A stretch of DNA of 48,749 bases from Thermodesulfobacteriota bacterium (GCA_036476895.1 JAZGCJ010000225.1:1-48749), one strand, 5' to 3'; numbered from the stretch's first letter, positions 2,396-41,461 are shown. Notes: a model not told the origin generated them from the sequence alone. Numbers and translations are program-made.

Positions 2396-2780
2396 TTTGT
2401 CCCTCCAGTCCGTAATCTTCCCACCTCTCAAGTGCTGTTAAATTATTTCCGTGGGCTTCGGTGTTGTATGGTCCGTACTCAAGAAGTACCCATTCTTTTA
2501 TAAAGTCTTTTGATGGATTCCTACGTCCCTTCTCATATTCCTTGACTCCTAAATCAATTAATTTACGGCGTGTGTGTTTATCTCTATCCATGTTTTCCCA
2601 ATCTAAAGTTCCAATTATTCCTAACTCCCCAAAATGCTTCTTCATCATCTCAAACATTGCCATGCATGGATAGTAAGATGATAGACCGGAGAAGCCATAC
2701 TTTTTCACCAATTCATAAAACTCCGGTGATTTAATAATGTGTTTCGCTTCAGCGTTCTCGAAATCTATATTGGTCATCAT
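2385..2780 (-). CDS. hypothetical protein with NL-tail-like C-terminus (GNNLTALERWEDYGLEG)
   Basis: 131-aa minus-strand ORF. The C-terminal segment resembles the NL tails of the paralog array (compare DNNLKAVEIIDAYRLNG). Confidence 0.55.
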   Translation of the reverse strand: MMTNIDFENAEAKHIIKSPEFYELVKKYGFSGLSSYYPCMAMFEMMKKHFGELGIIGTLDWENMDRDKHTRRKLIDLGVKEYEKGRRNPSKDFIKEWVLLEYGPYNTEAHGNNLTALERWEDYGLEGQNES

Positions 2781-3090
2781 AGTATTGTGTTATCCTAAAC
2801 TTTTCTAAAACTGCTATCGCTTCCAGATTTCCAATCATGTGAATCACATCTTCTCTGATTGCTCTCCTGGTTAATCGACCTTCTCTTAATTGCTCATGTA
2901 CATACATCTCTGCTTCATCCAAAGTTACAGGTTTAATCTCACGTAAATACAGAGACATAACACAATCTTTAGATGCTGTAATGTCTACTCTTAATTTAGA
3001 GTTGTAATCTTCGAAAGTAGAAGTATGATTTGCTTGCACTACTAAATCAACCCACTTCGGCATTAACTCTCTTGGTATCTTATACTGCAT
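2749..3090 (-). CDS. hypothetical protein with NL-tail-like segment (GNLEAIAVLEKF)
   Basis: 113-aa minus-strand ORF with an NL-E-x-I-x-x-L-E segment near the C-terminus. Confidence 0.55.
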   Translation of the reverse strand: MQYKIPRELMPKWVDLVVQANHTSTFEDYNSKLRVDITASKDCVMSLYLREIKPVTLDEAEMYVHEQLREGRLTRRAIREDVIHMIGNLEAIAVLEKFRITQYYDDQYRFRER

Positions 3091-8923: not shown

Positions 8924-9136
8924 TCATTCCTTATCGTTCTCCTGATCTGTTATTAATTCCAGAGCTACCAAATTATTTTCTGCGAACTGTATAATTTGTT
9001 CTTTCCAGAACTCCTCAGTAACCTTACCCGTTCCTTGACAAGCAATACATCCCGCAGGTAAACCGAGATTATATGGAAGATACTCTGACCCTGTACCGCG
9101 ACAAACCTGACATGATTTCAAATTATCATTAACCAT
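8924..9136 (-). CDS. NL-tail family mini-protein, double CxxCxGxG zinc-knuckle subtype (dispersed copy)
   Basis: MVNDNLKSCQVCRGTGSE...CIACQGTGKVTEEFWKEQIIQFAENNLVALELI has the same architecture as the array at 21.4-23.3 kb. The ATG at 9136 overlaps the upstream TAA (TAATG). Confidence 0.6.
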   Translation of the reverse strand: MVNDNLKSCQVCRGTGSEYLPYNLGLPAGCIACQGTGKVTEEFWKEQIIQFAENNLVALELITDQENDKE

Positions 9137-9396
9137 TAAAATATAGCCCACAAGAATACTAAGAACCAACCCGCACCATGAGAACCACCAGTCATAATCA
9201 ACATTGTTACCGCCACAATACCTGCAATAAGAACAGCAAATCCTTTGGTTTCCTTTGGAGATATTGTCCTGATAAGTTCAATCAGCCCAGGCTTATCACT
9301 TGGCTCCTTTTTCTTTGGAGTCACCCATTTAATAAATCTCTCGATATTTGTTGGATTCTCAGACATGTCGATGTCTATCTCCATAATTGTATTCAA
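9136..9396 (-). CDS. small membrane protein
   Basis: C-terminal hydrophobic helices (FAVLIAGIVAVTMLIMTGG..WFLVFLWAIF). Start uncertain. Confidence 0.5.
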   Translation of the reverse strand: MNTIMEIDIDMSENPTNIERFIKWVTPKKKEPSDKPGLIELIRTISPKETKGFAVLIAGIVAVTMLIMTGGSHGAGWFLVFLWAIF

Positions 9397-17073: not shown

Positions 17074-17472
17074 TTAGCTCACCGAATCAGCAAAGGCTAT
17101 TACCATCTTCTTTGCGTCCTCTAGTGTCTTGGCTTTGAATCCTACTGGCAATCCATCAATGGCCGATCCTTCCTCTACCTCATCTCCAACACCGAATCCA
17201 TATCGTGCTCTGTGACTCCACCTGTACCATTTGTTTTCTTTCTCACAAAATCCAATTGAACAGACACTATCATCTGGATGGGCTTTCTCCGGTATGATTC
17301 CCATTTCTTTTAAATCCTCTGCATTGGCTTGCTTACTAATATAAGCACCATCAAATGTATAAGCTCCGGTGTTTGTTATGGTCTTACCATTCTCATCTGT
17401 GCTTAAGAACTTAGTTACTAGCTCATAAGTATCCAAGCGTTCTCTCTTGAGTATGTCTCCGTATTTACTCAT
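17074..17472 (-). CDS. hypothetical protein
   Basis: The ATG at 17472 (MSKYGDIL...) lies 5 nt after GGAGGAGG. Confidence 0.6.
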   Translation of the reverse strand: MSKYGDILKRERLDTYELVTKFLSTDENGKTITNTGAYTFDGAYISKQANAEDLKEMGIIPEKAHPDDSVCSIGFCEKENKWYRWSHRARYGFGVGDEVEEGSAIDGLPVGFKAKTLEDAKKMVIAFADSVS

Positions 17473-17668
17473 TACTTCCTCCTCCATATTCTGACGAAAT
17501 AAAAGATATCTCCCAAAATGTCTTTAATTGTTTCTTATTATATCTCAATACATTATCATTTAAAGGCCCACCGATACAATAAATAATGCTTTCAATATCA
17601 GAGAAAGCCTTACTCATCTTTTGTATCTCTTTTCGCATTTCATAGTTCTCTTTATAAATATTAGCCAT
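17465..17668 (-). CDS. hypothetical protein
   Basis: 67-aa minus-strand ORF. Confidence 0.5.
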   Translation of the reverse strand: MANIYKENYEMRKEIQKMSKAFSDIESIIYCIGGPLNDNVLRYNKKQLKTFWEISFISSEYGGGSNE

Positions 17669-19867: not shown

Positions 19868-20255
19868 TCATGCGCCCTTGTGGTAATTCATCAGGCTTTG
19901 CTGCTCTTGTCATTATCACTTTCTTTGTTGTTGGGTCCAACTCTTTAACGTAGTCATCAAACCAAATTGATGGCTCCTTCGCTAACTCTCTCCACTCTTT
20001 CTCGTTAGCCTGTACTAGCGCAATTAGCTCAGTCACCTTTAAATTATCATCCACAAACCAACCATTGATTGTGTACGTCAATTCTTCGATGTTGATAGAG
20101 CCTTGCAGATAATTGACGATGTACTCCAAGATGTTATTCTCTATCATACTGACTCTACTATTATAATTCTTTGAATTTGAATTATTGTTAATAGTCTTTT
20201 GAACTTGCTCCATAACTTCTCGGTAGCGTCCTTTTCCTTTCAGTACTATTCTCAT
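19830..20255 (-). CDS. hypothetical protein, short paralog of 20252..21103
   Basis: Shares LKG.GRY.EV ... YLQG.I..EE.(S/T)Y....WFV.DNLKVT.L ... EW..L.K.P.IW(Y/F)D.Y with its upstream neighbour. Confidence 0.6.
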   Translation of the reverse strand: MRIVLKGKGRYREVMEQVQKTINNNSNSKNYNSRVSMIENNILEYIVNYLQGSINIEELTYTINGWFVDDNLKVTELIALVQANEKEWRELAKEPSIWFDDYVKELDPTTKKVIMTRAAKPDELPQGRMNGGDDAQCDSSA

Positions 20256-21103
20256 TTGAAAGGCTCATCAATATCAGGGACTGGCCCCTGTTTTTCTTCA
20301 TCATACTCGATTACGTCTATTTGTTCTTCATTTGGATTTTTAGCCTCATCAATCAACTTCACAATATCAACATCAGACTTCTCCACTGCATCATTAATCT
20401 GAACATTCCCATTTGCTGGATCAACAGCCTTAAGTTCTTCTGTACCACTGGTCATCTTTGCAATTGATCTTATAGTTTGTGCAGGTTTACCTTGAATTCC
20501 TGCTCCTGCAAATGATTGAGGCATTGAAATTCCTGGCATCGGTCCTGGATGAACACCATGAGGGTTAGTCATTGCTTTCTCTTGCTCTTGTTCTTTGATA
20601 ATGTTGTACGGAACCTCATGCTCAAAAGCTGGCTTAACGTGGCTCTCGCCTGTCTTTGGATCAGTTATCTTCCAATACTGATCATACCAAATTCGTGGGT
20701 CTTTCATTAACTTCTTCCACTCCTCACCCTTGTCATTTATGGTATCCATTAATTGAGTGACCTTTAAATTATCTCCAACAAACCAACTTCCAACTGAGTA
20801 GGAGAATTCTTCTCGTGTAATCTTCCCTTGAAGATAAGAGTCTAAATATGATAAGACTTCTCTGGCAAATGTGTCGTTTGCATCCAATCCTATAATCTCT
20901 TTAATCTCCTTCAACACTTCGTTGTAGCGTCCTTGACCTTTCAAGATCATTTTATTTGAATCGTGGTGCTTAGGATTTGTTTGTTCCGGTGATCCATATC
21001 CTTGTGGCAATGATGTGCTTAACATTTTATAACTCTCCTTTAAATTATTTATCCTCTCTTCAACTTCTGCTACCGTCATAGTCTTTGACTTTGAGTCCGT
21101 CAT
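20252..21103 (-). CDS. hypothetical protein, long paralog of 19830..20255
   Basis: 283-aa ORF. The central region aligns by eye with ORF 19830..20255. It has an extra Pro/Gly-rich and acidic C-terminal half. Confidence 0.65.
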   Translation of the reverse strand: MTDSKSKTMTVAEVEERINNLKESYKMLSTSLPQGYGSPEQTNPKHHDSNKMILKGQGRYNEVLKEIKEIIGLDANDTFAREVLSYLDSYLQGKITREEFSYSVGSWFVGDNLKVTQLMDTINDKGEEWKKLMKDPRIWYDQYWKITDPKTGESHVKPAFEHEVPYNIIKEQEQEKAMTNPHGVHPGPMPGISMPQSFAGAGIQGKPAQTIRSIAKMTSGTEELKAVDPANGNVQINDAVEKSDVDIVKLIDEAKNPNEEQIDVIEYDEEKQGPVPDIDEPFK

Positions 21104-21462
21104 AATACTGATATGTCCTTCGTTTCATATGAGCTGTTGGGGTCAAATCTTTTCTCCACCATAATATGACCTATCAAATCTCTTTCTTTATATTCCTCGT
21201 GATAACCTCGCCACGCATTCATATCCCCAAACTTATGATCATAATGACGCAAAATCGTTTGTGCTTCTCTTCTGATTTTATCCCCTTTCTCTTTGATCCA
21301 AAGTCCTATGAGGTAACTCAAATGTCCACAGAAAATTGATATAACCGTTCCTGTTAATACACCTACAATTGTAGGTGTGAGCAAAGCCATCAAATAGATG
21401 ATCTGTTGATGAATCTCCAAGTCATTGAACCATTCACTCATATTATACAAAAATCTTATCAT
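21100..21462 (-). CDS. membrane protein (2 TM)
   Basis: Hydrophobic helices IIYLMALLTPTIVGVLTGTVISIFCGHLSYLIGLW. ATGA overlap with the last array gene. Confidence 0.55.
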   Translation of the reverse strand: MIRFLYNMSEWFNDLEIHQQIIYLMALLTPTIVGVLTGTVISIFCGHLSYLIGLWIKEKGDKIRREAQTILRHYDHKFGDMNAWRGYHEEYKERDLIGHIMVEKRFDPNSSYETKDISVL

Positions 21463-21731
21463 TTATCCACCATTCTTTCCTCAAAAATCTCAATTTTTTC
21501 CAGATTATTCTTGCCAAACTGATTGAGTACCTGTTCTTTTAAAGTGTTCCTAGTAACCCACCCACCTTTGCAGACCCCACAAGTGTCTCGATAAGGAATT
21601 AAGTCTCTCCGTTTATCTAATCCTTTCTCCAAAAGAGGAGGTCTTAGACGTGCTACTTGTCCCTTTCCATCACATTGTAAACATTGATATTTAGTAACTT
21701 TATTCAATATTACTCGCCTCAAAAATCGCAA
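21459..21731 (-). CDS. NL-tail family mini-protein, double zinc-knuckle subtype
   Basis: CLQCDGKGQ ... CGVCKGGWVTRNTLKEQV ... KNNLEKIEIFEE. The likely true start is the TTG at 21707 (MNKVTKYQC), embedded in the upstream tail codons. Confidence 0.65.
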   Translation of the reverse strand: MRFLRRVILNKVTKYQCLQCDGKGQVARLRPPLLEKGLDKRRDLIPYRDTCGVCKGGWVTRNTLKEQVLNQFGKNNLEKIEIFEERMVDK

Positions 21732-21960
21732 TTAATTCCAAATTGTTCTTACCAAAATCCTTATGTTTGGTAATCTGTTCTTTCAATGTCTCTCTATCCA
21801 CCAGCCCATCTTCACACCATCCACAGGGATGCCAATGTGGTACTAATTTACGCCACTCACTTATAGGCCCCTTTGCTTGTTCTTCATTCGCCGGTTCATG
21901 CGACATCAGAGGAGTCACTCCATAGCCATCACACCGGAAACATTGGTATTTCTTACTCAT
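21700..21960 (-). CDS. NL-tail family mini-protein, double zinc-knuckle subtype
   Basis: CFRCDGYGV ... CGWCEDGLVDRETLKEQI ... KNNLELIAIFEA. Confidence 0.65.
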   Translation of the reverse strand: MSKKYQCFRCDGYGVTPLMSHEPANEEQAKGPISEWRKLVPHWHPCGWCEDGLVDRETLKEQITKHKDFGKNNLELIAIFEASNIE

Positions 21961-22192
21961 GTATTACGCTCTCTTCTAACATCTCTATCAATTTTAAATT
22001 GTTACACGATTCAGAACTCACTTGCAGAAGTTGAGCCTGTAATCCACCCCTACTCACAAACCCCATACCATAACATCCATTACAAGGTTCTACTGTTTTC
22101 TTTAAAGTTCGTGATCGTAGTAATTGTAAGCCAGTGAAGCCATCACCTTTACAAGTGCTACATCGGTATCTCTCTATTTGGTCCGTTTTCAT
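21953..22192 (-). CDS. NL-tail family mini-protein, double zinc-knuckle subtype
   Basis: CSTCKGDGF ... CNGCYGMGFVSRGGLQAQL ... CNNLKLIEMLEE. Confidence 0.65.
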   Translation of the reverse strand: MKTDQIERYRCSTCKGDGFTGLQLLRSRTLKKTVEPCNGCYGMGFVSRGGLQAQLLQVSSESCNNLKLIEMLEESVIHE

Positions 22193-22406
22193 AAGCTTCT
22201 ATTATCTCCAGGTTCGACTTGTTTGGATGATGCTTCATTTGCTCTAAGAAATCCTTTTCATGTAACCAACCACTTCCTAAACAGCTTTGACATTCAGACT
22301 GACGAGAAGAAACCATATTATGCCATGAATTATAATATTCACATACACCAGTGAATCCCATACCATTGCAGTCTAAGCATTTACATCTCTTCTTAATCTC
22401 CTTCAT
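22158..22406 (-). CDS. NL-tail family mini-protein, double zinc-knuckle subtype
   Basis: CLDCNGMGF ... CQSCLGSGWLHEKDFLEQM ... KSNLEIIEAYEN. Confidence 0.65.
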   Translation of the reverse strand: MKEIKKRCKCLDCNGMGFTGVCEYYNSWHNMVSSRQSECQSCLGSGWLHEKDFLEQMKHHPNKSNLEIIEAYENGPNREIPM

Positions 22407-22599
22407 ACAGTTCTACAATACTCAAGTTGTTTGTTTTGAACGTCGGGTTCTTCACCTGTTTCATAAAAGTTTCTTTACTCACTTTTCCCGTACCATCACA
22501 ACCCGTACATGTTACTGGGAATATACGATTACCAACACGAGCCTGAAAGTTCCCATGTCCGTAACATCTTATGCATTTATGATTAGTCAGCTTGTTCAT
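22393..22599 (-). CDS. NL-tail family mini-protein, double zinc-knuckle subtype
   Basis: CIRCYGHGN ... CTGCDGTGKVSKETFMKQV ... TNNLSIVELYEGD. The ATG at 22599 lies inside the upstream TAT-GAA codons. Confidence 0.65.
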   Translation of the reverse strand: MNKLTNHKCIRCYGHGNFQARVGNRIFPVTCTGCDGTGKVSKETFMKQVKNPTFKTNNLSIVELYEGD

Positions 22600-22780
22600 A
22601 AAGTTCAACTAGCTCCAAATTACTTTTCCATTGTCCTGACTCTCGTACCTGTCGGAGGAATGTTTTCTTTGTTACCTTTCCCCTTCCTCCACAATCTCCA
22701 CAATTTTGTATCTTTCCATCCAAGTAAATACTTGGCATATTCCAACACATGAGACACTTAAACTTCTTCCGCTTTTTCAT
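22583..22780 (-). CDS. NL-tail family mini-protein, double zinc-knuckle subtype
   Basis: CLMCWNM ... CGDCGGRGKVTKKTFLRQV ... KSNLELVELYEQAD. The ATG at 22780 lies inside the upstream TAT-GAA codons. Confidence 0.65.
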   Translation of the reverse strand: MKKRKKFKCLMCWNMPSIYLDGKIQNCGDCGGRGKVTKKTFLRQVRESGQWKSNLELVELYEQAD

Positions 22781-23000
22781 ATAGTTCAATTATCTCCAAG
22801 TTATTGTAGCTTACATGTGCTTGAGGTATTTGCTTTATGAACCTCTCCTCCGTTATCCTTCCAAATATATCACATTGATCACAATCTTCTTCTCGAAACC
22901 AACCTATATCTGGATCACTAGAGTCGTGAGATATTATTGAGGTATAAACCTTCTTTCTACCTCGGCACCTTAAACATCGAAATTTATTTGGCTTTTTCAC
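22758..23000 (-). CDS. NL-tail family mini-protein, double zinc-knuckle subtype
   Basis: CLRCRGRKK ... CDQCDIFGRITEERFIKQI ... YNNLEIIELYEKAEEV. GTG start inside the upstream TGT-GAA codons. Confidence 0.65.
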   Translation of the reverse strand: MKKPNKFRCLRCRGRKKVYTSIISHDSSDPDIGWFREEDCDQCDIFGRITEERFIKQIPQAHVSYNNLEIIELYEKAEEV

Positions 23001-23280
23001 AAAACTCCACTATCTCTAGGATATCTATCATTACCAAATTATCTTTTATCTCATGAACCAACTGCCTCTTAAGATCATCATACGTTATCAATCCCTTTCC
23101 ACTACAATGACAACAGGGTTCTTCATACTGTACTCCAGTTGGACATTCGTCCCCACAATTATCACCATTACAACTTCCAGAATGGGCAGGATCTATCCAG
23201 TACTCTACTCCGGTCCCCTGACACACCCAACAGGAATACATCTTGACTCCCTCGACAACTGTGTTACCTATTAAGTTCAT
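22984..23280 (-). CDS. NL-tail family mini-protein, zinc-knuckle subtype with extra Cys cluster
   Basis: CWVCQGTGV ... CNGDNCGDEC ... CCHCSGKGLITYDDLKRQL ... DNLVMIDILEIVEFCE. An alternative start at 23241 has a strong RBS. Confidence 0.65.
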   Translation of the reverse strand: MNLIGNTVVEGVKMYSCWVCQGTGVEYWIDPAHSGSCNGDNCGDECPTGVQYEEPCCHCSGKGLITYDDLKRQLVHEIKDNLVMIDILEIVEFCEKAK

Positions 23281-23536
23281 AATGTTCTACTAAAGCGATT
23301 GCATGTAAATTATTTATCGTTGGCATTGGTTGTGACGCACGTCCAATTATCCACTGAATTAAATATTTCTTATCATAAATAGGGTATCCCATAGCTTTTG
23401 CTTTATTTAATGCGTCCATCAACTCTTTTATTTCACACCCACTACAAGGCATCCCCACTCCAAGACGTTTCTGTAAACTCGCTTGGCATCCAGTGCACTC
23501 CACATTAAGTATATCAGGTAGTTGATTCATTAGCAA
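23264..23536 (-). CDS. NL-tail family protein, CxxC/CxxC subtype
   Basis: CTGCQ ... CSGCE, then INNLHAIALVEHYELNR. Confidence 0.6.
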   Translation of the reverse strand: MLMNQLPDILNVECTGCQASLQKRLGVGMPCSGCEIKELMDALNKAKAMGYPIYDKKYLIQWIIGRASQPMPTINNLHAIALVEHYELNR

Positions 23537-23835
23537 CTCCCGTCCGAAAAAGTAAATTCTATATTACAGTTCGGACACAAATGAGTTTCTTCCCACATTG
23601 TTGGTGATCCCCCAAACTCCATTGAAGCCCATATGTCAGCTTGTTCACTGTCATATATCGGATAGGCTTTATATCCCTTCGGAGGCTTTGGAAACAATCT
23701 GAAAGTTTTCTCATCGTATCCGGTACAGTCGTTTATTTCCCCATCCTTTATATAATAGAATCCCTCATCTAATTGATACCATCCACACACTGGACACTGA
23801 TAATCTGCGTATTCTTCTTTGACAGGTTCAGTCAT
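23530..23835 (-). CDS. zinc-ribbon protein (no NL tail) inside the array
   Basis: The ATG at 23835 follows AGGTGGAG. Cys pairs CPVCGW ... CPNCN. Confidence 0.55.
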   Translation of the reverse strand: MTEPVKEEYADYQCPVCGWYQLDEGFYYIKDGEINDCTGYDEKTFRLFPKPPKGYKAYPIYDSEQADIWASMEFGGSPTMWEETHLCPNCNIEFTFSDGSC

Positions 23836-24094
23836 TAAACTCCACCTTTTTACCAAACAGAAGACAAAGGTATACAAGTCCATGATTAATGATGTACCAC
23901 TTCGACACTGGTTGTTTAATAGCTTTATCCGATCTGAGAATTATCCATATTACGAAACCTAACATTAAGTACATCACAAAAGCTGCTATGGGTCCAAAAA
24001 TTATCAAATTCAATAAGAACAAAGCTAATATGCCAAAGCACACCAGCCTATCCCCTTGACTCATTTCCACCTTAGTCACTTTTATTGAGTTCAT
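23828..24094 (-). CDS. small membrane protein inside the array
   Basis: Two or three hydrophobic helices. The ATG is embedded in the upstream TAT-GAA (YE) codons. Confidence 0.55.
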   Translation of the reverse strand: MNSIKVTKVEMSQGDRLVCFGILALFLLNLIIFGPIAAFVMYLMLGFVIWIILRSDKAIKQPVSKWYIINHGLVYLCLLFGKKVEFND

Positions 24095-24392
24095 AAAATT
24101 CTATTAACTCCACTGCATGTAAATTTGTTACCACTGGATTCTGACTCGTATAGTCCAGTATTTTGTCCATTAAATATTTTTTACTATGATACGGATTTCC
24201 TTTGAAATGATGGTTACGAGCATCTTCTATAATATAGATAAAGTCTTTCATTACACATCCTATACAAGGCCATGCACTTTCTTCACAAAGTAATCTATTA
24301 CAATGCATGTTAAATACATGCGCTATTTCTTCCTCTATTTCTGTCTCTATTTCTGTCTCTATTTCTTTAACCATTGAGTCTGTAGGCATCAA
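24072..24392 (-). CDS. NL-tail family protein
   Basis: Acidic (EIET)n N-terminus, HCNRLLC..CIGC, then VTNLHAVELIEFYELN. Confidence 0.6.
   Translation of the reverse strand: MMPTDSMVKEIETEIETEIEEEIAHVFNMHCNRLLCEESAWPCIGCVMKDFIYIIEDARNHHFKGNPYHSKKYLMDKILDYTSQNPVVTNLHAVELIEFYELNKSD
24333..24368. repeat. 12-bp tandem repeat x3 (ctctatttctgt), in-frame (EIET)n
   Basis: Read directly from the sequence. Encodes EIETEIETEIEEEI in ORF 24072..24392. Confidence 0.8.
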
Positions 24393-24771
24393 TTATCTCC
24401 ACCGCTTTCAAATTATTATCCTTGAACACATCCATCACAAAATTTCTCCATGATGTCCTCTCCGTCCACTTCCCATATCGAGTTTCAAATTCAGGCACCA
24501 TGACTTTACTCATCGGTTTAATCCTTCCTACCCAGTAGGAATACAATGCATATCGTAATGCTGTAATCTCACTTTTGACAGGCTCACAGCCACAAATTGG
24601 GTCAGAACACTCACACATCTCTACCCCTTCCCACACCTTCTCAGCCTCTAATAATTCTTCCCGTCTCCTCATCCTATCCATCTCCTCGTGATCGGACAAG
24701 CCAATTTGTACTTTAAAGGCAGTTATCAGCTTACCCAAATGGTAAATTCCTTCATATTTTGCGTATTTCAT
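24367..24771 (-). CDS. NL-tail family protein
   Basis: The ATG at 24771 follows GGTGAAAATA. Contains CECSDPICGCEP and then DNNLKAVEIIDAYRLNG. Confidence 0.6.
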   Translation of the reverse strand: MKYAKYEGIYHLGKLITAFKVQIGLSDHEEMDRMRRREELLEAEKVWEGVEMCECSDPICGCEPVKSEITALRYALYSYWVGRIKPMSKVMVPEFETRYGKWTERTSWRNFVMDVFKDNNLKAVEIIDAYRLNG

Positions 24772-24783
24772 TATTTTCACCAA

Positions 24784-24875
24784 GCATATTTAATGCGTTC
24801 GGTTCTCCAAAGAAAGCATATCTCATGCAGATTCGATGCGTATTTAAGACATAAAAAGGCATATTTAATGCGTTC
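24784..24875. repeat. intergenic direct repeats of GCATATTTAATGCGTTC (2 perfect copies plus degenerate GCAT-N5-ATGC copies)
   Basis: 17-bp perfect copies at 24784-24800 and 24859-24875. GCATATCTCATGC lies at 24816-24828. This is the only sizeable non-coding gap inside the array. Confidence 0.8.
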
Positions 24876-24887
24876 AGTTTTCTCACT

Positions 24888-25223
24888 TTAGAGTCCATTT
24901 CCCCTGTGCCTTATTGTGGTCATATCCTCTGTGTCATGCCGTATATCTCTCAAGTCACTCATCAACTCCAAGATATGTAGGTTTGGCATATTTAGAATCT
25001 CCCCCAATACTTTACCTACTGTTGGAGCATTAATCATATTACCTAAATACGCACACAATAAGTCATCAATGAATCTATGATTTATCGCTTGGAGATGTAC
25101 GTTCCTCTCTTTCTCTATCCAAGGCCCTACCAACTCATCAAATACTTGCTGGTATCGTTTAATACGCTTCAAACTATTATTGTCCACTTTTGCTCTGCCT
25201 TTCGATATCAGCTTTGGCCTCAT
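24888..25223 (-). CDS. NL-tail family protein (no Cys motif)
   Basis: MPNLHILELMSDL lies near the C-terminus. Confidence 0.55.
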   Translation of the reverse strand: MRPKLISKGRAKVDNNSLKRIKRYQQVFDELVGPWIEKERNVHLQAINHRFIDDLLCAYLGNMINAPTVGKVLGEILNMPNLHILELMSDLRDIRHDTEDMTTIRHRGNGL

Positions 25224-25449
25224 TCATTTCATCCACTATCTCTACCCACTCCAAATTCGGTACATCTGTGATAAAATTCAACAACCGTACTGATTTCTGT
25301 GCAGTAACCTCACCTGCTAAAAATCTGTATATGGCTAAATGTAAGACACCCTCATCAAAGTCATCCACTCCTCTATCTTTCACCTTCCTTTGAAGATAAG
25401 GTCTAAGTTTGTCCATGAAGTAAGCGGTCTTTGATTCTACGAAATTCAT
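25177..25449 (-). CDS. NL-tail family protein (no Cys motif)
   Basis: VPNLEWVEIVDEM lies near the C-terminus. GAGGAGACAG precedes the ATG. Confidence 0.55.
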   Translation of the reverse strand: MNFVESKTAYFMDKLRPYLQRKVKDRGVDDFDEGVLHLAIYRFLAGEVTAQKSVRLLNFITDVPNLEWVEIVDEMNEAKADIERQSKSGQ

Positions 25450-25744
25450 CTGTCTCCTCTCTTAATGTATTTAATTTATCCACCACTTCTATTAATTCAA
25501 GGTTCTGTAAGACTGTGTATCTCTGTATCATCTTAGTTAATGTCCGACAAGATAATGACCCATGAATGTAAAGCTCTCCTATCATATACAATTCATCCAC
25601 TCGGCGTTGCCAAGCTGTATCAGGACTCTCAGTATCATCCAATCCCTTTGGTTTTATCTTCTCATCTTCAAAAAATTTAAACCGCTTCTCTAAGAAATTC
25701 TTGAAGATAGCATCATAGTATTCAATTAGCTCTTTTTTTACCAC
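25403..25744 (-). CDS. NL-tail family protein (no Cys motif)
   Basis: LQNLELIEVVDKL. The GTG at 25744 (6 nt after GGTGGA) is preferred over the ORF-track start at 25825, which overlaps the upstream gene by 88 nt. Confidence 0.5.
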   Translation of the reverse strand: MVKKELIEYYDAIFKNFLEKRFKFFEDEKIKPKGLDDTESPDTAWQRRVDELYMIGELYIHGSLSCRTLTKMIQRYTVLQNLELIEVVDKLNTLREETDEFRRIKDRLLHGQT

Positions 25745-25971
25745 ACCAGAAGTCCACCCAAATATCCTGTAAGTCCTGCCAGGGCTATAATCTCCCACCA
25801 AGGTGCTTTGTAAAACATGAACCATACTTTCTTATAAACTGCTAAGAACAGTCCATAAGCTATGTCCGTTGGTACAGTCCATAGTAAAAACTTCAGCCAT
25901 ACTCCTGGTTGCTCTTTGAAGTCCGCCCAAAACATCAATGCTATCTCCTTTTCTGGATCAATTATTATCAT
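25738..25971 (-). CDS. small membrane protein inside the array
   Basis: Hydrophobic helices. ATGA overlap with the upstream gene. Confidence 0.55.
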   Translation of the reverse strand: MIIIDPEKEIALMFWADFKEQPGVWLKFLLWTVPTDIAYGLFLAVYKKVWFMFYKAPWWEIIALAGLTGYLGGLLVW

Positions 25972-26273
25972 TTTTTCACCTCGTTTAACCCATAGGCATC
26001 TAGGATTTCTATTGACTGAAAATTAGTGAACATTCTCTTTCTTTTCATTATCTGTTGAAAGAATCTTCTTACCCATTCATTGGTATCTTCCACGTTTATT
26101 CCTTTACCTAAATTAACTTTTCCCGTTGTAACATATTGCTCCAGTAATGTTTTGATATAGTTCCTACGACATCCTATGCATTGACAAAATGGTAACGACG
26201 ATGGGTTCTGAGCAAAGCATCTCAGCAATATACCTTTCCACACTTCCTCTCGGTTTTCTTTATTCTCTTCCAC
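25968..26273 (-). CDS. NL-tail family protein (CQCIGC)
   Basis: The GTG at 26273 lies 6 nt after AAGGAG. Tail is TNFQSIEILDAYGLNE. Confidence 0.55.
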   Translation of the reverse strand: MEENKENREEVWKGILLRCFAQNPSSLPFCQCIGCRRNYIKTLLEQYVTTGKVNLGKGINVEDTNEWVRRFFQQIMKRKRMFTNFQSIEILDAYGLNEVKK

Positions 26274-26367
26274 TAAAATCTCCTTCAAAGAGTTGGGTTA
26301 GGTTATCCCTACAGCCAGCGAAACCATCAGCACGTACTAAAAGGACTGTACTATCGGGGGTGTACAT
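26260..26367 (-). CDS. possible 35-aa ORF with NL-like tail (RDNLTQLFEGDF)
   Basis: The ATG at 26367 follows AAAGGAC. Below the ORF-track cutoff. Its 3' end carries the RBS of the next gene. Confidence 0.3.
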   Translation of the reverse strand: MYTPDSTVLLVRADGFAGCRDNLTQLFEGDFSGRE

Positions 26368-26420
26368 TTAATGTCCTTTCAGCATAATCACTGGTTCACC
26401 CATGAGGTCTTTTGAAAGCC

Positions 26421-27596
26421 TTAGCCCTTTTTAGTTTCCTTCATGATCGCAGCTATCTTCTTAGTCAGCTTAGGATAGTTCATAAGCTCTGACAAGAACT
26501 CTTTTGACAGCTTGTGAACAACCGTAGCTTGATGCTCCGATGGAATATCCTCAATAAATCTCGTGAGATTATCCATTACTTTCTTACTCGGTTTCCTATT
26601 GTCTAATTCGGCTGCGACTTCTTTAACCGTGACGTGCATCTCATCTGTTCGTTGTTTCTTAAGTTTTTTGATAATCTTCTCATAGGTGTCCAGGACTTCT
26701 TTCCCTGTGACAGGTCTATTGTAATTAGCATCAATGAACTTAATCAACGACTGAGCAGGTGTTATGCCTATTAATCCCCTGAACACTTCCATTTGATGTT
26801 TCTTTAGTACCACATCATTTTTCATCAGAATATCAATCATCCGGTATTGATCCGGTGTTGGATGCCCATCTAATGTGAACTGTTCTTTCGGAGACAGCAA
26901 ATCAGGATGAGCAGCAATGAATCCTGTAATAGAATCATCGATATCTCCAATACCATGTGCCCACTTAAGCCAGACTTCTGGATCAGCCGACACTTTGATA
27001 TTGCAGAACCGTCTCAACATAGCAGGGTCCAACTCTTCAACTTGATAGTTGAGCTTACTGTTGCTGGGATTGACCGCAGAAAAAATAGACCATCCAGGCG
27101 GTAGCTTATGAGTATGTAATCTCCACTCATTCACCAACTGAAAGACAGCCTGTCTTACATCCTGTGGTGCTCTGTTTAACTCATCCAGGAATAATATACC
27201 CCTCGGATGCTTTTTTGCATTTGGAAACCATTCAGGCTTTTCCCAAATTGTGACCTCTTCATCATCAGTTTCAGTAATATGAAGTACACTTAAAAAGGAC
27301 TTCGTTATATCACTCCACGATGATGTATGCTCACCTTTGATCTTTCTCATGACTTGCTTCAGCCATCTGAACATGCTACTTCTCGGAATTCCAATCAAAT
27401 CTGCGGGTTCCATTTGGGCCAACCGCAGATCGATAATTTCTGTTTCAGGATCGAATCCTAACTCGATTCCGGCTTGCTTAACAATCCACGACTTACCTAT
27501 ACCCATAGAGCCATGCAACATCACAGCAACCTTAACCTGCTTTTGTGCTACGGACTTTAGGAAGTCCTTAGTCTCATCTACAAACATCGTGTACAC
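26421..27596 (-). CDS. MoxR-like AAA+ ATPase
   Basis: Walker A is HGSMGIGKS and Walker B is ILFLDELNRA, with PQDVRQAVFQLV following. This is typical of the MoxR/AAA_5 group. GGAGGTG precedes the ATG. Confidence 0.85.
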   Translation of the reverse strand: MYTMFVDETKDFLKSVAQKQVKVAVMLHGSMGIGKSWIVKQAGIELGFDPETEIIDLRLAQMEPADLIGIPRSSMFRWLKQVMRKIKGEHTSSWSDITKSFLSVLHITETDDEEVTIWEKPEWFPNAKKHPRGILFLDELNRAPQDVRQAVFQLVNEWRLHTHKLPPGWSIFSAVNPSNSKLNYQVEELDPAMLRRFCNIKVSADPEVWLKWAHGIGDIDDSITGFIAAHPDLLSPKEQFTLDGHPTPDQYRMIDILMKNDVVLKKHQMEVFRGLIGITPAQSLIKFIDANYNRPVTGKEVLDTYEKIIKKLKKQRTDEMHVTVKEVAAELDNRKPSKKVMDNLTRFIEDIPSEHQATVVHKLSKEFLSELMNYPKLTKKIAAIMKETKKG

Positions 27597-27625
27597 CTCC
27601 GATTATTTTAAGTCTGAAATTGTTT

Positions 27626-27653
27626 ATCACCAATCACCAATCACCAATCACCA
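27626..27653. repeat. heptamer tandem repeat (ATCACCA)x4; TGGTGAT x4 on the coding strand
   Basis: Read directly from the sequence. It spans the stop codon of the VWA gene, and each unit contains TGA, giving stops in all three frames. Confidence 0.9.
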
Positions 27654-29119
27654 TAATCTTTTGGCTTATGTTTTTGCATGGCTAGGACCTGTCCAAACGG
27701 TGCTGTGTCTACGTCTGACACTGATACCCATAAGACGGGATATGGTGGTTTCTGACTTGGAAAATCTCCGTACATATCCGTGAAGTAAATAACTAAATCA
27801 GGATTCAATCGCTTGTCTGCAATGTACTTAAATGGTGGTTTGAAACTTGTTCCCCCACCACCATGAAATTTGGTATCAACTTTCTTATTAGGGATTAACT
27901 CATATACTCGTTGAATATCCCAGTCACATTCTATTATAGTTACTTTGGTTTTGTAAATTCTTTGAAGCCCCTGCATCTCAGCCGTGAAATCTTGATAGTC
28001 TTTCATGTTAATACTACCGCTCGTGTCCACAACCTCTATAATGCGTAACTTTCTATCCGGCAACTTTCCTTTCTGATCTTCACCAAATCTTCTGTTAGGT
28101 CTCTTCCAACTTCTCTTTGATCCTGATTTAATCTTCGTTGCAACAAATTGTTTCAGTAATCTCCACCACGGAAGTATGGGTGGTTTTAGAAGCTCATCAA
28201 TATACTGTTCAAGTCCACCTGGAATTCTTCCTTGACTTCTTTCTGTCTGCTCTTTAGCAGCAGCAACAGATTGCCGTAATACCTCGGATGCAATATCCGG
28301 TGAATCTCCTTTCTCCCACTTATCATGGTTCCCTGGTTTATCTAAATCGAATTCGCCTGTCTTGTTTCCCTGATCATCATAGACATCAACATGGGTTGTC
28401 TCACCCATTCCTTTTCCACCACAATCTTGACAAGGCTCATCCTTTTGTCCTTGTCCTTGTCCTTGACCTTGCTGTTGATCCTTCTGATCTTTCCCTTGTC
28501 CTTGTCCTTGAGATTGTCCTTTCTGTTGATCCTTCTTCTCCGTTCCTTTACCTCCACCATTACCACTTTGCTGCTGTTGTTTATTCTTTGAGTCCCCATC
28601 TCCTTGACTACCTTTTGGTTCCTTACCAGTCCCCCCACAACGTCCACACTTTCCGGCTGACTTCTTAGAAAATTTGATTCTCGGTTGATGCTTGTACATA
28701 ACATCGTAGTAATATTCAGCAATGGCATTAGATTTCAGATTCCAGTCTTTAGAAAACTTATCCATTGTCACTACACCGTCGGGTAAATCCTTTATCATTT
28801 GGTTGATCGCTAAATCCGTGGCAATATTCCAGAGTTGTGGATGGCGACTACGAATACGAGTCAAGTGATCCATAACAAGATGGAGACACTCATGCTCTAG
28901 TACCGCCCGACGTTCATTCAAATTCTTGGTATGCTCACTGAACAACTTAGGATTGTACCGAAGTTCAATGCGTCCATTGATGATCGTAACTCCTGCCATG
29001 AATGGCATAGTTTTATCAGCAACCCTATGCATCTGTGATAACAGACTCGCATAGAATACCCCATTGTTAAATAACAAATGGACTATAACTTTCTCAAAAT
29101 CCTCTAGATCATCCATCAT
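27641..29119 (-). CDS. metallopeptidase-like + VWA-like two-domain protein (DUF2201-type MoxR partner) with inserted zinc knuckles and Gln/Gly-rich linker
   Basis: The N-terminal domain has LEHECLHLVMDH (HExxH) and NIATDLAINQ. The C-terminal domain has VVDTSGS (MIDAS DxSxS), HGGGGTSF and IYFTDMYGDFP. The insert is CGRCGGTGK ... (Q/G/K-rich, about 60 aa) ... CQDCGGKGM. Confidence 0.85.
   Translation of the reverse strand: MMDDLEDFEKVIVHLLFNNGVFYASLLSQMHRVADKTMPFMAGVTIINGRIELRYNPKLFSEHTKNLNERRAVLEHECLHLVMDHLTRIRSRHPQLWNIATDLAINQMIKDLPDGVVTMDKFSKDWNLKSNAIAEYYYDVMYKHQPRIKFSKKSAGKCGRCGGTGKEPKGSQGDGDSKNKQQQQSGNGGGKGTEKKDQQKGQSQGQGQGKDQKDQQQGQGQGQGQKDEPCQDCGGKGMGETTHVDVYDDQGNKTGEFDLDKPGNHDKWEKGDSPDIASEVLRQSVAAAKEQTERSQGRIPGGLEQYIDELLKPPILPWWRLLKQFVATKIKSGSKRSWKRPNRRFGEDQKGKLPDRKLRIIEVVDTSGSINMKDYQDFTAEMQGLQRIYKTKVTIIECDWDIQRVYELIPNKKVDTKFHGGGGTSFKPPFKYIADKRLNPDLVIYFTDMYGDFPSQKPPYPVLWVSVSDVDTAPFGQVLAMQKHKPKDYGDW
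28436..28609. repeat. in-frame low-complexity microsatellite-like region (CCTTGT/CCTTGA units; encodes QGQGQG/KDQ tracts)
   Basis: Read directly from the sequence. It explains the spurious ORFs in other frames of this segment. Confidence 0.8.
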
Positions 29120-38444: not shown

Positions 38445-38921
38445 TTATATAAGCCATCCATGATTTTGACGACGGTTCTTGAGTTCCACCTTAATAGAAT
38501 CTATATCATCAAAAAAGTCATTGCTTTTTAACCCATTACACACTTGACATGCAGCTACAATTTCTTCCTTATTAGTTCCTGAATAACTCCAGGGAATAAC
38601 GTGATCAAATGTTATTTTTAGAGTGACCTGCTTATCGGTTTTTAAATTTTTAATTCGGCTCCCAAATTCTAATTCACAATATTTACACTTATTTTCTTGC
38701 TCTAATAAAATCTGCTGTTGTCGCCCTTTTGGAATATGTCTGCGTCTATAATCACCAGTACATTCTCTAACTAATTTTTCTGTTGTCGGTTGTAGAGCTT
38801 CCTTATCACAACACTGTAATATTCCATCAATCACAAAAGCACGTCCACGACAATCAGAACAATATTGCTTTCTCAGTTTGATACCGCCATAGATAGAAAC
38901 CTGACCTGTTTTTTTCTTCAT
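38445..38921 (-). CDS. HNH endonuclease, translationally coupled to the DNA polymerase gene
   Basis: The ATG at 38921 overlaps the polymerase TGA (ATGA). Motifs are CKYCE ... FDHVIPWSYSGTN ... ACQVCNGLKSN. Confidence 0.75.
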   Translation of the reverse strand: MKKKTGQVSIYGGIKLRKQYCSDCRGRAFVIDGILQCCDKEALQPTTEKLVRECTGDYRRRHIPKGRQQQILLEQENKCKYCELEFGSRIKNLKTDKQVTLKITFDHVIPWSYSGTNKEEIVAACQVCNGLKSNDFFDDIDSIKVELKNRRQNHGWLI

Positions 38922-41461
38922 GCTGCTACTTTCTCCACTAATTCCAGCTTGCCCCATCGAACTCCGGTCTGTAATTCTGCGACCATTGGTACCGTCACAC
39001 CTTTGATTGGTCTCTCCATTTCTTCTCGCACAATATCCAAACTTTTTGTATGCTCTACCTTTGGCACTTCTAAAATAATTGAGTCGTGAACCAGACTGCA
39101 TATCTTTCCAGTCAGCCCTTCTCTTTTAAATCGAAGTCGAATCCTGTTTGCTGCGTTACAATTCATGTCCGATGCTGCCGACTGTATTGGGCTATTCATG
39201 GCTTGACGTTCTGCCAGTGCTTTCAATCCTTTGTCAGGACTATCAATCGTAGGTAGTCTACGAATCCTACCAAAGACACTACTAATCTCTTTGCGGATTT
39301 GTACCTCTCTAATCGCAGCCTTTAACCAGGCACTCGCTTTTGGATACCGACTAAAGAAGATTTCCCGTACATGGACTGCATGTTCTTCTGAACATCCTAA
39401 CATGTCTGCAATACTTTTTGTTCCTCGTCCGAACATCAATCCAAACACAATCGTCTTCGCTTGATTACGTTGTTCTTTATCCACATCTTTAACATCTATA
39501 TTTAGAGCTAGAGACGCCATAAGTTTGTGAATGTCTGGTCCCGTTCCATTCGTCGCTTTGATAATATCCTGGATCATCACAGGGTCTTGTGAATAGTTAG
39601 CCCAATGTCTAAACTCTGCTTGTGCATAGTCAGCTTCAATTAAGAAGAAGCCTTCTTCAGCAATAAATAGAGGCTTAATTCTGGTATCCCTTCGTGGAAT
39701 GTTTTGGACATTAGGATTCTTACTTGACAATCGTCCAGTTACAGTTCCATGAATTAAGAACTCGGTGTGGATTCTACCGTTCTCATCAATAAGATCATTG
39801 ATGCCCATAACATAGGTTCCGTACATCTTATAAGCCTTACGGTGTTGAAGAATCAATGGTATTAAAGGATGTTGCGTTTTTAAGTCTTCAAGTACACTCT
39901 CGTCTGTGGAAGCTAATCCTTTCTTTGTTTTCTTCACAACAGGTAATTTCCACTTCGTGAATAAAAGTTCTCGTAATTGAGGTGTTGATTTGATATTGAG
40001 TCCTGGAGCTATCTGATCAATCTTTATATTAATACCTGCAAGTTCTCCTTCAAAACTCTTTTTTAATTCACTGATGTAATCCCGATCAATCTTCATTCCA
40101 TGTACTTCAGCTTCCATCAACGTCTCACTTAAAATCATAATGACTTGCTTGAACAAGAGCCACAATTTTGCGTCACCCTTTAGCTGAGGTTCATACAAAT
40201 TCTTTTGTCGCATGGTATTGTCAGCATCTTTAGCTCCGTATTCATACAACATGTCCGGTGGAAGCATAGCATAGTTTCTATCCCCTACTGCAATTTTATT
40301 GTCTTTGAACCATTGTTCAAGTGGATCATCGTATCCACCCATGTCTACAACCCATGCTAAATCTTTTAATTTATGACTTGGTGCATTTTCATCCAACATA
40401 TAATGAGCCAGCATCGTATCAAACGTTAATTTATTCACTTGCATCTTATAGCTTTCCATTAAAAATCTGGAGTCAAACTTCCCGTTGTGAGCAATCTTAG
40501 GTATATCAGAAGCAAATAGTGCTCGTAACTTATCAATAATGATTCTTTGCTTCTCACCCCAGTACGGTAGATAATGGTGGATGGTACGAGTCTTTTCTAC
40601 GGGAACTTCTTTCTTCGTCTTGATCCAGGCTTTCGTTTGCTTATCTTTTTTCCGCACACTTTTTAACTTTATTTCGGTGTAGGTTTCTTCCTCACCCCTA
40701 TAGGAATGAATGGGTAATGTAAACCCAAGACCTTCTTTCCATGTGAAGGCTATGCACATCACTGTATCCTTACGTCCATTAAGACCAGATGTTTCTAAAT
40801 CGAAGACAAACTCTGGTACTGTTCGTAGCTTGTCAATTAATTTCTCTGCCTTTTCAAACGTATCAGCTACTTTGTATACACCTAATCTCTTTTCAGTTAA
40901 CTTTGTTGTTTGCGATGAAGTTTTGACACGTCTTAAATCGTTTACCGTTATCCCTTCATACTGTAAGCGTCGTCGAACGTACATCGGATGCATGATAGGC
41001 ATAACTTTACAATTGTATTTATCACTCCAGACCTCAGTCCCTCGGAACTTTCCTATCATAGCAGTACGTTGACCAAGAACTCTCTTCAACGCTACGTTCC
41101 CCATTGGCACAATAACAGTCGGCTTGAGAGCTTCTATCTCTTTATCAAGATAAGCTGAACATGCTTCAATCTCTTCTTTGGACGGATCACGTACATAGTC
41201 TGGTGGTGGTGCTTTTGGAATACAACGAACGACTGTTGTTAAAAAGACTGACACTGGACTGATACCCGCCTTCCGTAGAAGACGATTGACTGCTATCCGT
41301 ATTGGTCCAGAATCTATATCACCTGTCTTATCTTCAGGTGAACCAGGCCACTCACTCACTAACATAATCTTAGCTTGATCATCACCTCGTCCATTAACAA
41401 CGTGTGTCCGTAGTTTACACAGACCACATTTTTCACAATCTTCATTATTTAGACTTTGCAT
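38918..41461 (-). CDS. polA: family A DNA polymerase with 3'-5' exonuclease domain and N-terminal family-4 UDG-like domain
   Basis: UDG-like part: CEKCGLC...VNGRG..AKIMLVSEWPGSPED...VVRCIP...EACSAYL...IMHPMYV. Exonuclease part: FVFDLETSGL, YGAKDAD. Polymerase part: DYAQAEFRHWA (motif A), RNQAKTIVFGLMFGRG (motif B), LVHDSIILEV (motif C). Confidence 0.9.
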   Translation of the reverse strand: MQSLNNEDCEKCGLCKLRTHVVNGRGDDQAKIMLVSEWPGSPEDKTGDIDSGPIRIAVNRLLRKAGISPVSVFLTTVVRCIPKAPPPDYVRDPSKEEIEACSAYLDKEIEALKPTVIVPMGNVALKRVLGQRTAMIGKFRGTEVWSDKYNCKVMPIMHPMYVRRRLQYEGITVNDLRRVKTSSQTTKLTEKRLGVYKVADTFEKAEKLIDKLRTVPEFVFDLETSGLNGRKDTVMCIAFTWKEGLGFTLPIHSYRGEEETYTEIKLKSVRKKDKQTKAWIKTKKEVPVEKTRTIHHYLPYWGEKQRIIIDKLRALFASDIPKIAHNGKFDSRFLMESYKMQVNKLTFDTMLAHYMLDENAPSHKLKDLAWVVDMGGYDDPLEQWFKDNKIAVGDRNYAMLPPDMLYEYGAKDADNTMRQKNLYEPQLKGDAKLWLLFKQVIMILSETLMEAEVHGMKIDRDYISELKKSFEGELAGINIKIDQIAPGLNIKSTPQLRELLFTKWKLPVVKKTKKGLASTDESVLEDLKTQHPLIPLILQHRKAYKMYGTYVMGINDLIDENGRIHTEFLIHGTVTGRLSSKNPNVQNIPRRDTRIKPLFIAEEGFFLIEADYAQAEFRHWANYSQDPVMIQDIIKATNGTGPDIHKLMASLALNIDVKDVDKEQRNQAKTIVFGLMFGRGTKSIADMLGCSEEHAVHVREIFFSRYPKASAWLKAAIREVQIRKEISSVFGRIRRLPTIDSPDKGLKALAERQAMNSPIQSAASDMNCNAANRIRLRFKREGLTGKICSLVHDSIILEVPKVEHTKSLDIVREEMERPIKGVTVPMVAELQTGVRWGKLELVEKVAA

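Follow-up and report, generated by a model that had tools for sequence, protein, structure and literature searches.

How can a row of overlapping, paralogous genes shift its reading phase by the same step at junction after junction? The question is raised by an array of small zinc-ribbon genes on the minus strand of a 48,749-nucleotide (nt) stretch of DNA from a Thermodesulfobacteriota bacterium assembly (GCA_036476895.1, JAZGCJ010000225.1:1-48749). This whole stretch is referred to as the window, and positions are counted from its first letter. The window belongs to a metagenome contig of 78,757 bp (GCA_044345325.1, called L001 when its public gene calls are meant), which is phage-like and represents a large uncultured phage with the array in its accessory part. 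In the array, the start codon of a gene is embedded in conserved codons near the end of the gene upstream. With moderate confidence we favour the reading that this is an operon-like row of zinc-ribbon cassettes with a shared start-in-tail joint, that the cassettes recombine through the tail, and that the starts are used mainly by ribosomes already engaged on the mRNA.

Start codons embedded in the tails of upstream genes

The array has eight core paralogs (21459-23280) and one divergent member (23264-23530). In the order of transcription these genes, and the joints between them, are the following.

23264-23530, minus strand: divergent member of the family, carrying two CxxC pairs and ending in the tail NNLHAIALVEHYELNR and the stop codon; holds the 23280 junction; a relative is L011:1969-2265
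22984-23280, minus strand: cassette 1, a long zinc-ribbon paralog; start ATG 23280 inside the upstream Tyr-Glu codons
22758-23000, minus strand: cassette 2; GTG 23000 in the upstream Cys-Glu codons, the sole start candidate
22583-22780, minus strand: cassette 3; start ATG 22780, GGAG 13 nt upstream
22393-22599, minus strand: cassette 4; start ATG 22599, GGAG 13 nt upstream
22158-22406, minus strand: cassette 5; ATG 22406, the sole start candidate, without a Shine-Dalgarno (SD)-like motif; tail extended by ENGPNREIPM
21953-22192, minus strand: cassette 6; start ATG 22192, GGAG 13 nt upstream, 35-nt overlap
21700-21960, minus strand: cassette 7; ATG 21960 in the upstream His-Glu codons, the sole start candidate, 8-nt overlap
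21459-21707, minus strand: cassette 8; start probably TTG 21707 in the upstream Ile-Glu codons, GAGG 9 nt upstream
22774-22802, minus strand: 29-nt joint, a member of a direct-repeat family; example AAC TTG GAG ATA ATT GAA CTA T-ATG-AA AA
22186-22214, 22593-22621, 22994-23022 and 24088-24116: further copies of the 29-nt joint

A preliminary description of the window had reported nine embedded start codons, and all of them were found at their minus-strand coordinates: tATGAa at 24094, 23280, 22780, 22599, 22406 and 22192, tGTGAa at 23000, cATGAg at 21960 and aTTGAa at 21707. The stops at 23264, 22984, 22758, 22583, 22393, 22158, 21953, 21700 and 21459 give the residues 2,1,0,2,1,0,2,1,0 modulo 3, as had been stated, and the successive stop-to-stop distances are all 1 modulo 3, i.e. 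every start is offset by +1 relative to the upstream frame. From 24094 to 21707 the overlaps at the nine junctions are 23, 17, 17, 23, 17, 14, 35, 8 and 8 nt. If the phases were independent, the chance that eight further junctions share the phase offset of the first would be (1/3)^8; the staircase is confirmed as real and beyond chance. Among the direct repeats of the region 21300-25900, the junction 29-mer forms the largest family (6 copies, 69-83% identity).

Three details of the preliminary description had to be narrowed. The GGAG that it placed 13 nt upstream of the start in several junctions is at exactly this distance in four of the nine (24094, 22780, 22599 and 22192), but not in the other five. 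The codon string TTG GAG xTx xTx GAA xTx TAT GAA, which it gave for most junctions, describes those at 22780, 22599 and 22192 and in part the one at 22406, but not the tails before 24094 and 23280 (NLHAVELIEFYE and NLHAIALVEHYE), where the distance from the Asn-Leu anchor to Tyr-Glu is longer by one helical turn. Finally, eight of the nine starts belong to a paralog, as claimed, but the ninth, at 24094, opens a membrane-protein gene whose start is ambiguous, ATG 24064 being the alternative. Cassette 8 has two further in-frame TTG codons, at 21731 and 21722; the related locus L006 shares this design and has GAGGAG 7 nt upstream.

The staircase in related loci

Ten further loci were recovered from several metagenome samples, and the +1 phase rotation was present in every one. 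The phases are, for instance, 2,0,1,2,0,1 in L002, 0,1,2,0 in L004, 2,0,1,2,0 in L009, and 1,2,0,1,2,0,1,2,0 in the ten-gene array of L013. The offset was +1 at about 40 of the 42 junctions that lead into a member of the zinc-ribbon family. In the window the overlaps span 8-35 nt, in the relatives 8-44 nt, and the mode is 17 nt. An ATG, GTG or TTG occupies the Tyr/Cys/Val-Glu position in 22 of 25 canonical tails, the tails scored being those of the window and the first eight loci. At most junctions this embedded codon is the sole ATG, GTG or TTG between the preceding stop of the +1 frame and the first zinc-binding Cys.

The preliminary description had reasoned that its interpretation would fail if related arrays lacked the overlap, or if the true starts lay elsewhere, for example at the internal ATG 23241 of cassette 1. 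Related arrays retain the overlap. In the L003 ortholog of cassette 1, the codon corresponding to ATG 23241 is CTG and the SD GAGGGAG has degraded to GAAGGAA, while the N-terminal extension is retained, its 13 codons from the upstream stop to the first Cys showing only three synonymous and three conservative changes. These coding-like changes together with the loss of the internal ATG and its SD favour 23280 as the start.

In two relatives the tail is longer (L002:1416-1472 and L009:515-571). It reads ELYENYDDLYE followed by AD or CR and the stop, thus containing a second Tyr-Glu, and offers the next cassette further in-frame ATGs at -35, -26 and -14 from the upstream stop; the proximal one corresponds to the start at 22406 of the window. 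In another locus, a frameshift divides the ortholog of cassette 4 (L005:539-743) into a head of 31 codons and a tail that lies in a different phase; this is either a pseudogene or an assembly error.

Codon choice at the joint

Codon counts were made on 29 tails with an embedded start from the window and its relatives, against background frequencies of 0.66 for TAT, 0.41 for GAG and 0.34 for G-ending Leu codons. The first Glu of the motif, located 13 nt upstream of the start (Glu-1), was GAG in 22 of 22 cases (background 0.414, binomial 4e-9), and GGAG was present in 16 of these 22 tails, with 0.14 as the expected fraction. Tyr was encoded by TAT in 27 of 30 cases. The Glu which shares the start codon (Glu-3) was GAA in 24 of 27, and the control codon Glu-2 was at background (GAA 17, GAG 11).

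There is a second joint design, in which the tails end in LFE or IFE and the downstream start is close to the stop. Here Glu-1 was GAA in five of seven tails and Glu-3 was GAG in 10 of 14, and the start, located just before the stop, has GAGG or GAGGAG 7-9 nt upstream. The reciprocal switch between GAG and GAA in the two designs argues that the Glu codons are used as an SD sequence.

Tyr is TAC in three tails (L002, L009 and L008), and in the first two another start for the downstream zinc-ribbon gene is close by. In L002 this start is a GTG located 9 nt downstream and preceded by GGAG at 10 nt; in L009 it is an ATG in Asp-Ala codons (gATGcc), with GGAG 7 nt upstream. The L008 tail is followed by a gene that does not belong to the paralogs; its start is the ATG of a second Tyr-Glu immediately ahead of the stop.

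The tail as a whole had been proposed to be under dual constraint, as peptide and as initiation signal. Nucleotide-level selection was indeed seen at three codons (Glu-1 GAG, Tyr TAT, Glu-3 GAA), but among orthologs the seven tail codons showed no excess of synonymous conservation, the same codon being used at 62% of positions against 68% across the body of the gene. The dual constraint is thus a local one: selection acts at the particular nucleotides of GAG, TAT and GAA.

The Asn codon of the Asn-Leu anchor was AAC in 20 of 29 tails (background 0.32). We considered that CTGGAG might be a restriction-type site, and dismissed this idea since TTGGAG is equally frequent at the same position.

Cassettes are exchanged from start to start

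Cassettes were assigned to types by their best match to the types of the window; single-linkage clustering at 50% merged most types and was discarded. Cassette 2 has different neighbours in the window, in L004 (ortholog 417-653) and in L005 (ortholog 322-555). When the three phages were aligned at its start, identity in the body of the upstream gene was 25-38%; it rose to 44-70% over the tail and reached 83-85% from the start codon on. On the 3' side it was 71-89% as far as the next start and dropped to 38-46% past it. The residues that follow Tyr-Glu, and the stop, track the downstream neighbour and not the gene to which they belong: EKAK, ENAK or EEAK and a stop precede one type of downstream cassette, EKAEEV or EKAEEN and a stop another. 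Cassette 6 is missing from the corresponding position in L002, L009 and L013. The steps of identity at the embedded starts and the ends that track the neighbour indicate that the unit of gain, loss and exchange extends from one start to the next, which also explains the constant period of 1 modulo 3. The suggestion that the duplicated unit included the junction was thus borne out, homology between orthologous cassettes of different phages starting and ending at the embedded start codon.

Under the favoured reading, a cassette is the stretch from its own start codon to the start codon of the next cassette. Its ATG takes two bases from the end of the upstream Tyr codon (TAT) and one from the beginning of the Glu codon (GAA), and the phase is always +1 because the ATG straddles these two codons. 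The first 8-44 nt of the cassette also encode, in the upstream phase, the last residues and the stop codon of the preceding gene, and the upstream tail provides a weak SD, the GGAG of the Leu-Glu codons 13 nt before the ATG. Unequal or homologous recombination in the conserved tail could then duplicate, delete or swap whole cassettes with start, stop and phase preserved, because the joint is identical everywhere. The regular phase rotation would be the trace of such tail-based recombination.

The proteins

The cassette proteins are 65-98 amino acids long and consist of a predicted DnaJ-type CxxCxGxG zinc ribbon followed by two helices, of which the second and last corresponds to the tail consensus NNLE(I/L)(I/V)ELYE. 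Common to the paralogs are invariant Cys pairs in the CxxCxGxG form, a conserved Gln and the tail NNLExIExYE; C9, C12, C40/C43 and G47 are invariant or nearly so. The AlphaFold model of the cassette 2 protein has a predicted local distance difference test score (pLDDT) of 85 and contains beta hairpins and helices at residues 51-61 and 67-79, therefore the tail is taken to be the last helix of a small folded domain. The ratio of nonsynonymous to synonymous divergence (dN/dS) was 0.07-0.33 at dS 0.6-2.1 in eight ortholog pairs, so the cassettes are real genes under purifying selection.

Similarity to known families is low. The proteins scored 17-23 bits with PF00684 (DnaJ_CXXCXGXG), under the Pfam gathering cutoff of 32.7. 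The top Foldseek matches were DnaJ domains and were weak (E 0.5, probability 0.85, root-mean-square deviation 3.0 over 46 columns); Foldseek searches of PDB and BFVD gave no functional lead, and PHROG and PADLOC scans gave only weak zinc-finger-type matches. Word-indexed searches of 5.8 billion proteins found 14 family members, and a second such search with a 28-sequence profile added none. The only search to widen the family was an exhaustive hidden Markov model (HMM) profile search of 1.84 billion representatives, which gave about 45 small full-length members. The family is confined to one clade of uncultured phages, and its proteins are candidate accessory effectors.

In some of the new members the zinc ribbon is combined with a YELN-type tail resembling the tails of the genes that start the region, at 24072 and 23264. 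A C-terminal module HMM matched the eight core paralogs with E below 1e-9 and the upstream YELN-type tails only with E 0.2-0.5, and we regard the latter as kin because intermediates such as P0044 link them. Similar tails are also found far from the array, in the genes 8924-9169 and 2749-3090 (minus strand), which have the endings NNLVALELITDQENDKE and NLEAIAVLEKF..., respectively; the first of these gave E 0.009 with the module HMM. Judged from such matches, the helix module may be dispersed in the genome.

How the embedded starts may be translated

Both the array starts and their mode of initiation are predictions from the nucleotide sequence. Promoter-like and terminator-like sites in 20000-27000 showed no excess over background, therefore a single mRNA carrying all cassettes is likely. 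On it, the embedded AUG would be initiated mainly by ribosomes already engaged, which could either prevent the site from folding or terminate a few codons further on and then slide back, and GGAG would aid capture of the start where present. Some form of coupling is plausible, and ribosomes already on the mRNA probably contribute.

Several observations sit uneasily with this reading. The 13 nt between GGAG and ATG is at the long edge of spacing: in 100 other genes of the window it peaks at 5-9 nt and only one gene has 13, therefore the array SD must be considered weak and poorly spaced. At 7 of 29 joints there is no Glu at the Glu-1 position and hence no such SD, thus about a quarter of the joints need some SD-independent route. 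Predicted accessibility was 0.51 for the array starts, 0.57 for other starts and 0.47 for random sites, and the differences were not significant. Translational coupling is reported to be most efficient between -4 and +3, to fall faster with overlap than with spacing and to be absent at -25 nt in one systematic series; it weakens fast as the overlap grows, and more strictly so in two Firmicutes (PMC12548453). Some rearrangements apparently used the first zinc knuckle instead of the tail. The codon counts include orthologs and are not fully independent, a concern that is limited by dS being near 1. A conserved hairpin that masks the start, or one that shortens the 13-nt spacer, was also considered and was dropped, as accessibility did not separate the array starts.

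Among the alternatives, the one that survives best is that free 30S subunits initiate independently at each start through the weak GGAG, the overlap being inherited compact packing and upstream translation irrelevant. The codon-level selection for GGAG, switched to Glu-3 in the other joint design, is what such initiation would predict, and strong SDs at 11-13 nt precede a few other phage genes. We nevertheless think it unlikely, since a quarter of the joints have no SD-like motif at the Glu-1 position, a four-base SD at 13 nt should be poor compared with the 5-9 nt norm of the phage, and ribosomes finishing the upstream gene must cross the site, which makes an interaction hard to avoid.

Termination-reinitiation coupling, which the preliminary description had held probable, is in its strict form the opposite extreme: a downstream cassette would be read only by ribosomes that have just terminated upstream and moved back 8-41 nt, with negligible de novo initiation. 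Coupling by scanning ribosomes is documented (PMC12548453, PMC6728339), the genes are all co-directional and overlapping, without an excess of terminators or promoters, and the SD is weak, poorly spaced and missing in 7 of 29 joints. What makes this mechanism, in its strict form, distinctly unlikely is that the stop floats (8-44 nt overlap) while the GGAG-13 nt-ATG geometry is conserved, and that SD pairing matters, as seen from the selection for GAG at Glu-1. Moreover, the overlaps fall outside the published best range, -4 to +3, with no coupling at -25 nt in one series (PMC12548453), and the phage had the option of short overlaps, for it uses overlaps of -4, -1 and -8 elsewhere.

We consider it very improbable that the Tyr-Glu ATG arises simply as a side effect of peptide conservation in an AT-rich genome, with the true starts elsewhere or many cassettes unexpressed. 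TAT is the commoner Tyr codon anyway (0.66), so Tyr-Glu would give an ATG in about two thirds of cases by chance, and two gene callers passed over several cassettes or picked the start at 23241. But most joints offer no other ATG, GTG or TTG between the +1-frame stop and the first zinc-binding Cys, TAT is enriched (27/30) and another start is close by where it was lost, the downstream frames are under purifying selection, and in L003 the N-terminal extension is conserved, unlike ATG 23241 and its SD. That the cassettes are fused into multi-domain polyproteins by programmed +1 frameshifting at the joint is hardly credible, its sole support being the constant +1 offset: the joints have no conserved slippery or hungry-codon motif and no SD 3 nt before a shift site, they vary at synonymous sites, each downstream frame opens with a start codon, and in many joints a stop closes the +1 frame 6-15 nt upstream of the start, so that the shift would need to fall within that short stretch.

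Relation to known systems

Small phages such as phiX174 or MS2 have long out-of-phase overlaps, where the same stretch encodes two proteins in different phases. They are single cases joining unrelated genes, whereas the overlap of the array is short, modular and repeated among paralogs. Like coupled overlapping gene pairs of the ATGA or TAATG kind (PMC12548453, PMC6728339), the array has the downstream start and SD inside the end of the upstream coding region, on the same strand and probably on one mRNA. It differs from them in that its overlaps are 8-44 nt (mode 17) and not 1 or 4 nt, that the start is in a conserved structural motif and not at the stop, and that the joint is repeated along a series of paralogs.

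It is useful to compare the array also with the PeSL (promoter plus stem-loop) cassettes of T4-type phages (PMC2839356, PMC4122927). In both, a short conserved motif flanks small variable accessory genes, and the breakpoints of insertions, deletions and replacements between related phages fall in the flanking motif. The PeSL motif is an intergenic early promoter with a stem-loop, whereas the motif of the array is wholly coding and has no promoter, terminator or structure signal; the joint holds the C-terminal helix of one protein and the SD and start of the next. At the protein level, the DnaJ Cys-rich domain (PF00684) and small phage CxxCxGxG proteins (Anti-TRAP, PF15777) likewise have two CxxC(xGxG) knuckles, which in the array proteins probably also form a zinc ribbon; in contrast to the DnaJ domain, the array proteins are below the cutoff in Pfam, lack a J domain and have a two-helix C-terminal module without a match.

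Ordinary coupling of overlapping genes is the closest known mechanism and PeSL-mediated shuffling the closest evolutionary counterpart. We assigned the array to neither class, because its overlaps are longer than those of coupled pairs and an intergenic promoter-terminator motif is lacking. It is a variant of ordinary gene overlap and not a new translation mechanism.

A bolder proposal is that the tail-plus-start joint is a selected universal adaptor, similar to those of integrons or PeSL cassettes but within coding sequence and without a dedicated recombinase, for exchanging a library of small zinc-ribbon effectors. We find this possible, if rather doubtful. If it were true, a cassette would take its ribosome-binding site from the upstream neighbour and give that neighbour a stop codon, therefore any order of cassettes would be expressible, and linked translation might favour assembly of adjacent products through their shared helices.

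In its more modest, favoured form, the tail joint accounts for the growth and reshuffling of an array of overlapping genes with every reading frame left intact. It is a concrete case, at the sequence level, of a conserved protein helix doubling as ribosome-binding site, start codon and recombination joint, and offers a natural system in which to test at what distance upstream of a stop codon bacterial ribosomes can restart. The array also exposes a blind spot of annotation, several such genes having been skipped or mis-started by two gene callers. The public gene calls of L001 omit 22583-22780, 22158-22406 and 21953-22192 and start cassette 1 at 23241; we attribute the skipping to the long same-strand overlaps, which defeat the caller.

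Flanking genes and the phage

The genes next to the core array and the gap that precedes them, together with the more distant DNA polymerase gene, are listed below.

24782-24871, minus strand: intergenic sequence in which the near-palindrome GCATTAAATATGC occurs three times, in a gap of 104 nt ahead of gene 24367-24783
24367-24783, minus strand: tail-bearing gene without a zinc ribbon, tail NNLKAVEIIDAYRLNG followed by the stop; L011:520 has the same design
24072-24392, minus strand: tail-bearing gene, tail NLHAVELIEFYELNKSD followed by the stop; holds the 24094 junction
23828-24094, minus strand: small membrane protein, not a paralog; start either the embedded ATG 24094 or ATG 24064
23530-23835, minus strand: Cys-rich protein without the tail; ordinary short overlaps with its neighbours (8 nt and 1 nt)
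21100-21462, minus strand: conserved membrane protein closing the array in the window, L002, L006 and L010; ordinary ATGA overlap, +2 phase
38918-41461, minus strand: family-A DNA polymerase with an N-terminal domain of the uracil-DNA-glycosylase superfamily (PF03167, E 1e-21)

The gap at 24782-24871 is among the few non-coding stretches of the window. The copies of GCATTAAATATGC sit within two 24-nt direct repeats spaced 75 nt, a layout that looks operator-like. The gap is a candidate regulatory or promoter region heading the array operon. In gene 24367-24783 the ATG of the next gene (24389) is within Asp-Ala codons (gATGcc), with GGAG 7 nt upstream. A 12-nt tandem repeat at 24323-24370 (minus strand) encodes EIETEIETEIEEEI at the N-terminus of gene 24072-24392. 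For the membrane-protein gene 23828-24094, gene callers differ on the start between L001 and L011.

The window is tightly packed with genes, all on the minus strand, and has a G+C content of 37%. The contig also encodes a primase, nucleases and an SbcCD-like pair, and its family-A DNA polymerase is about 30% identical to the polymerases of Bacillus SPO1-like phages. No close phage relative was found among 50,697 phage records (megablast of the region, tblastn of one paralog), and IMG/VR scans with two proteins, two metagenome scans and one GTDB genome scan revealed no cultured relative, prophage or host. Rfam and tRNA scans over the whole window gave no matches.

Directly upstream of the small-gene region there is a gene pair (26421-29119, minus strand) for an AAA_5 (MoxR-like) ATPase and a DUF2201 metallopeptidase/VWA protein. 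About 4 kb from the array, at 17074-17487 (minus strand), lies a gene for a 137-amino-acid homologue of Tad6, a Type I Thoeris inhibitor (Pfam E 3e-36, 125 bits versus a cutoff of 27), whose single relative in the phage database is from Phage NCTB (40% identity). This homologue marks the neighbourhood as one carrying accessory genes of the counter-defence type, and its proximity is a lead, and only a lead, toward an accessory-effector role of the cassettes.

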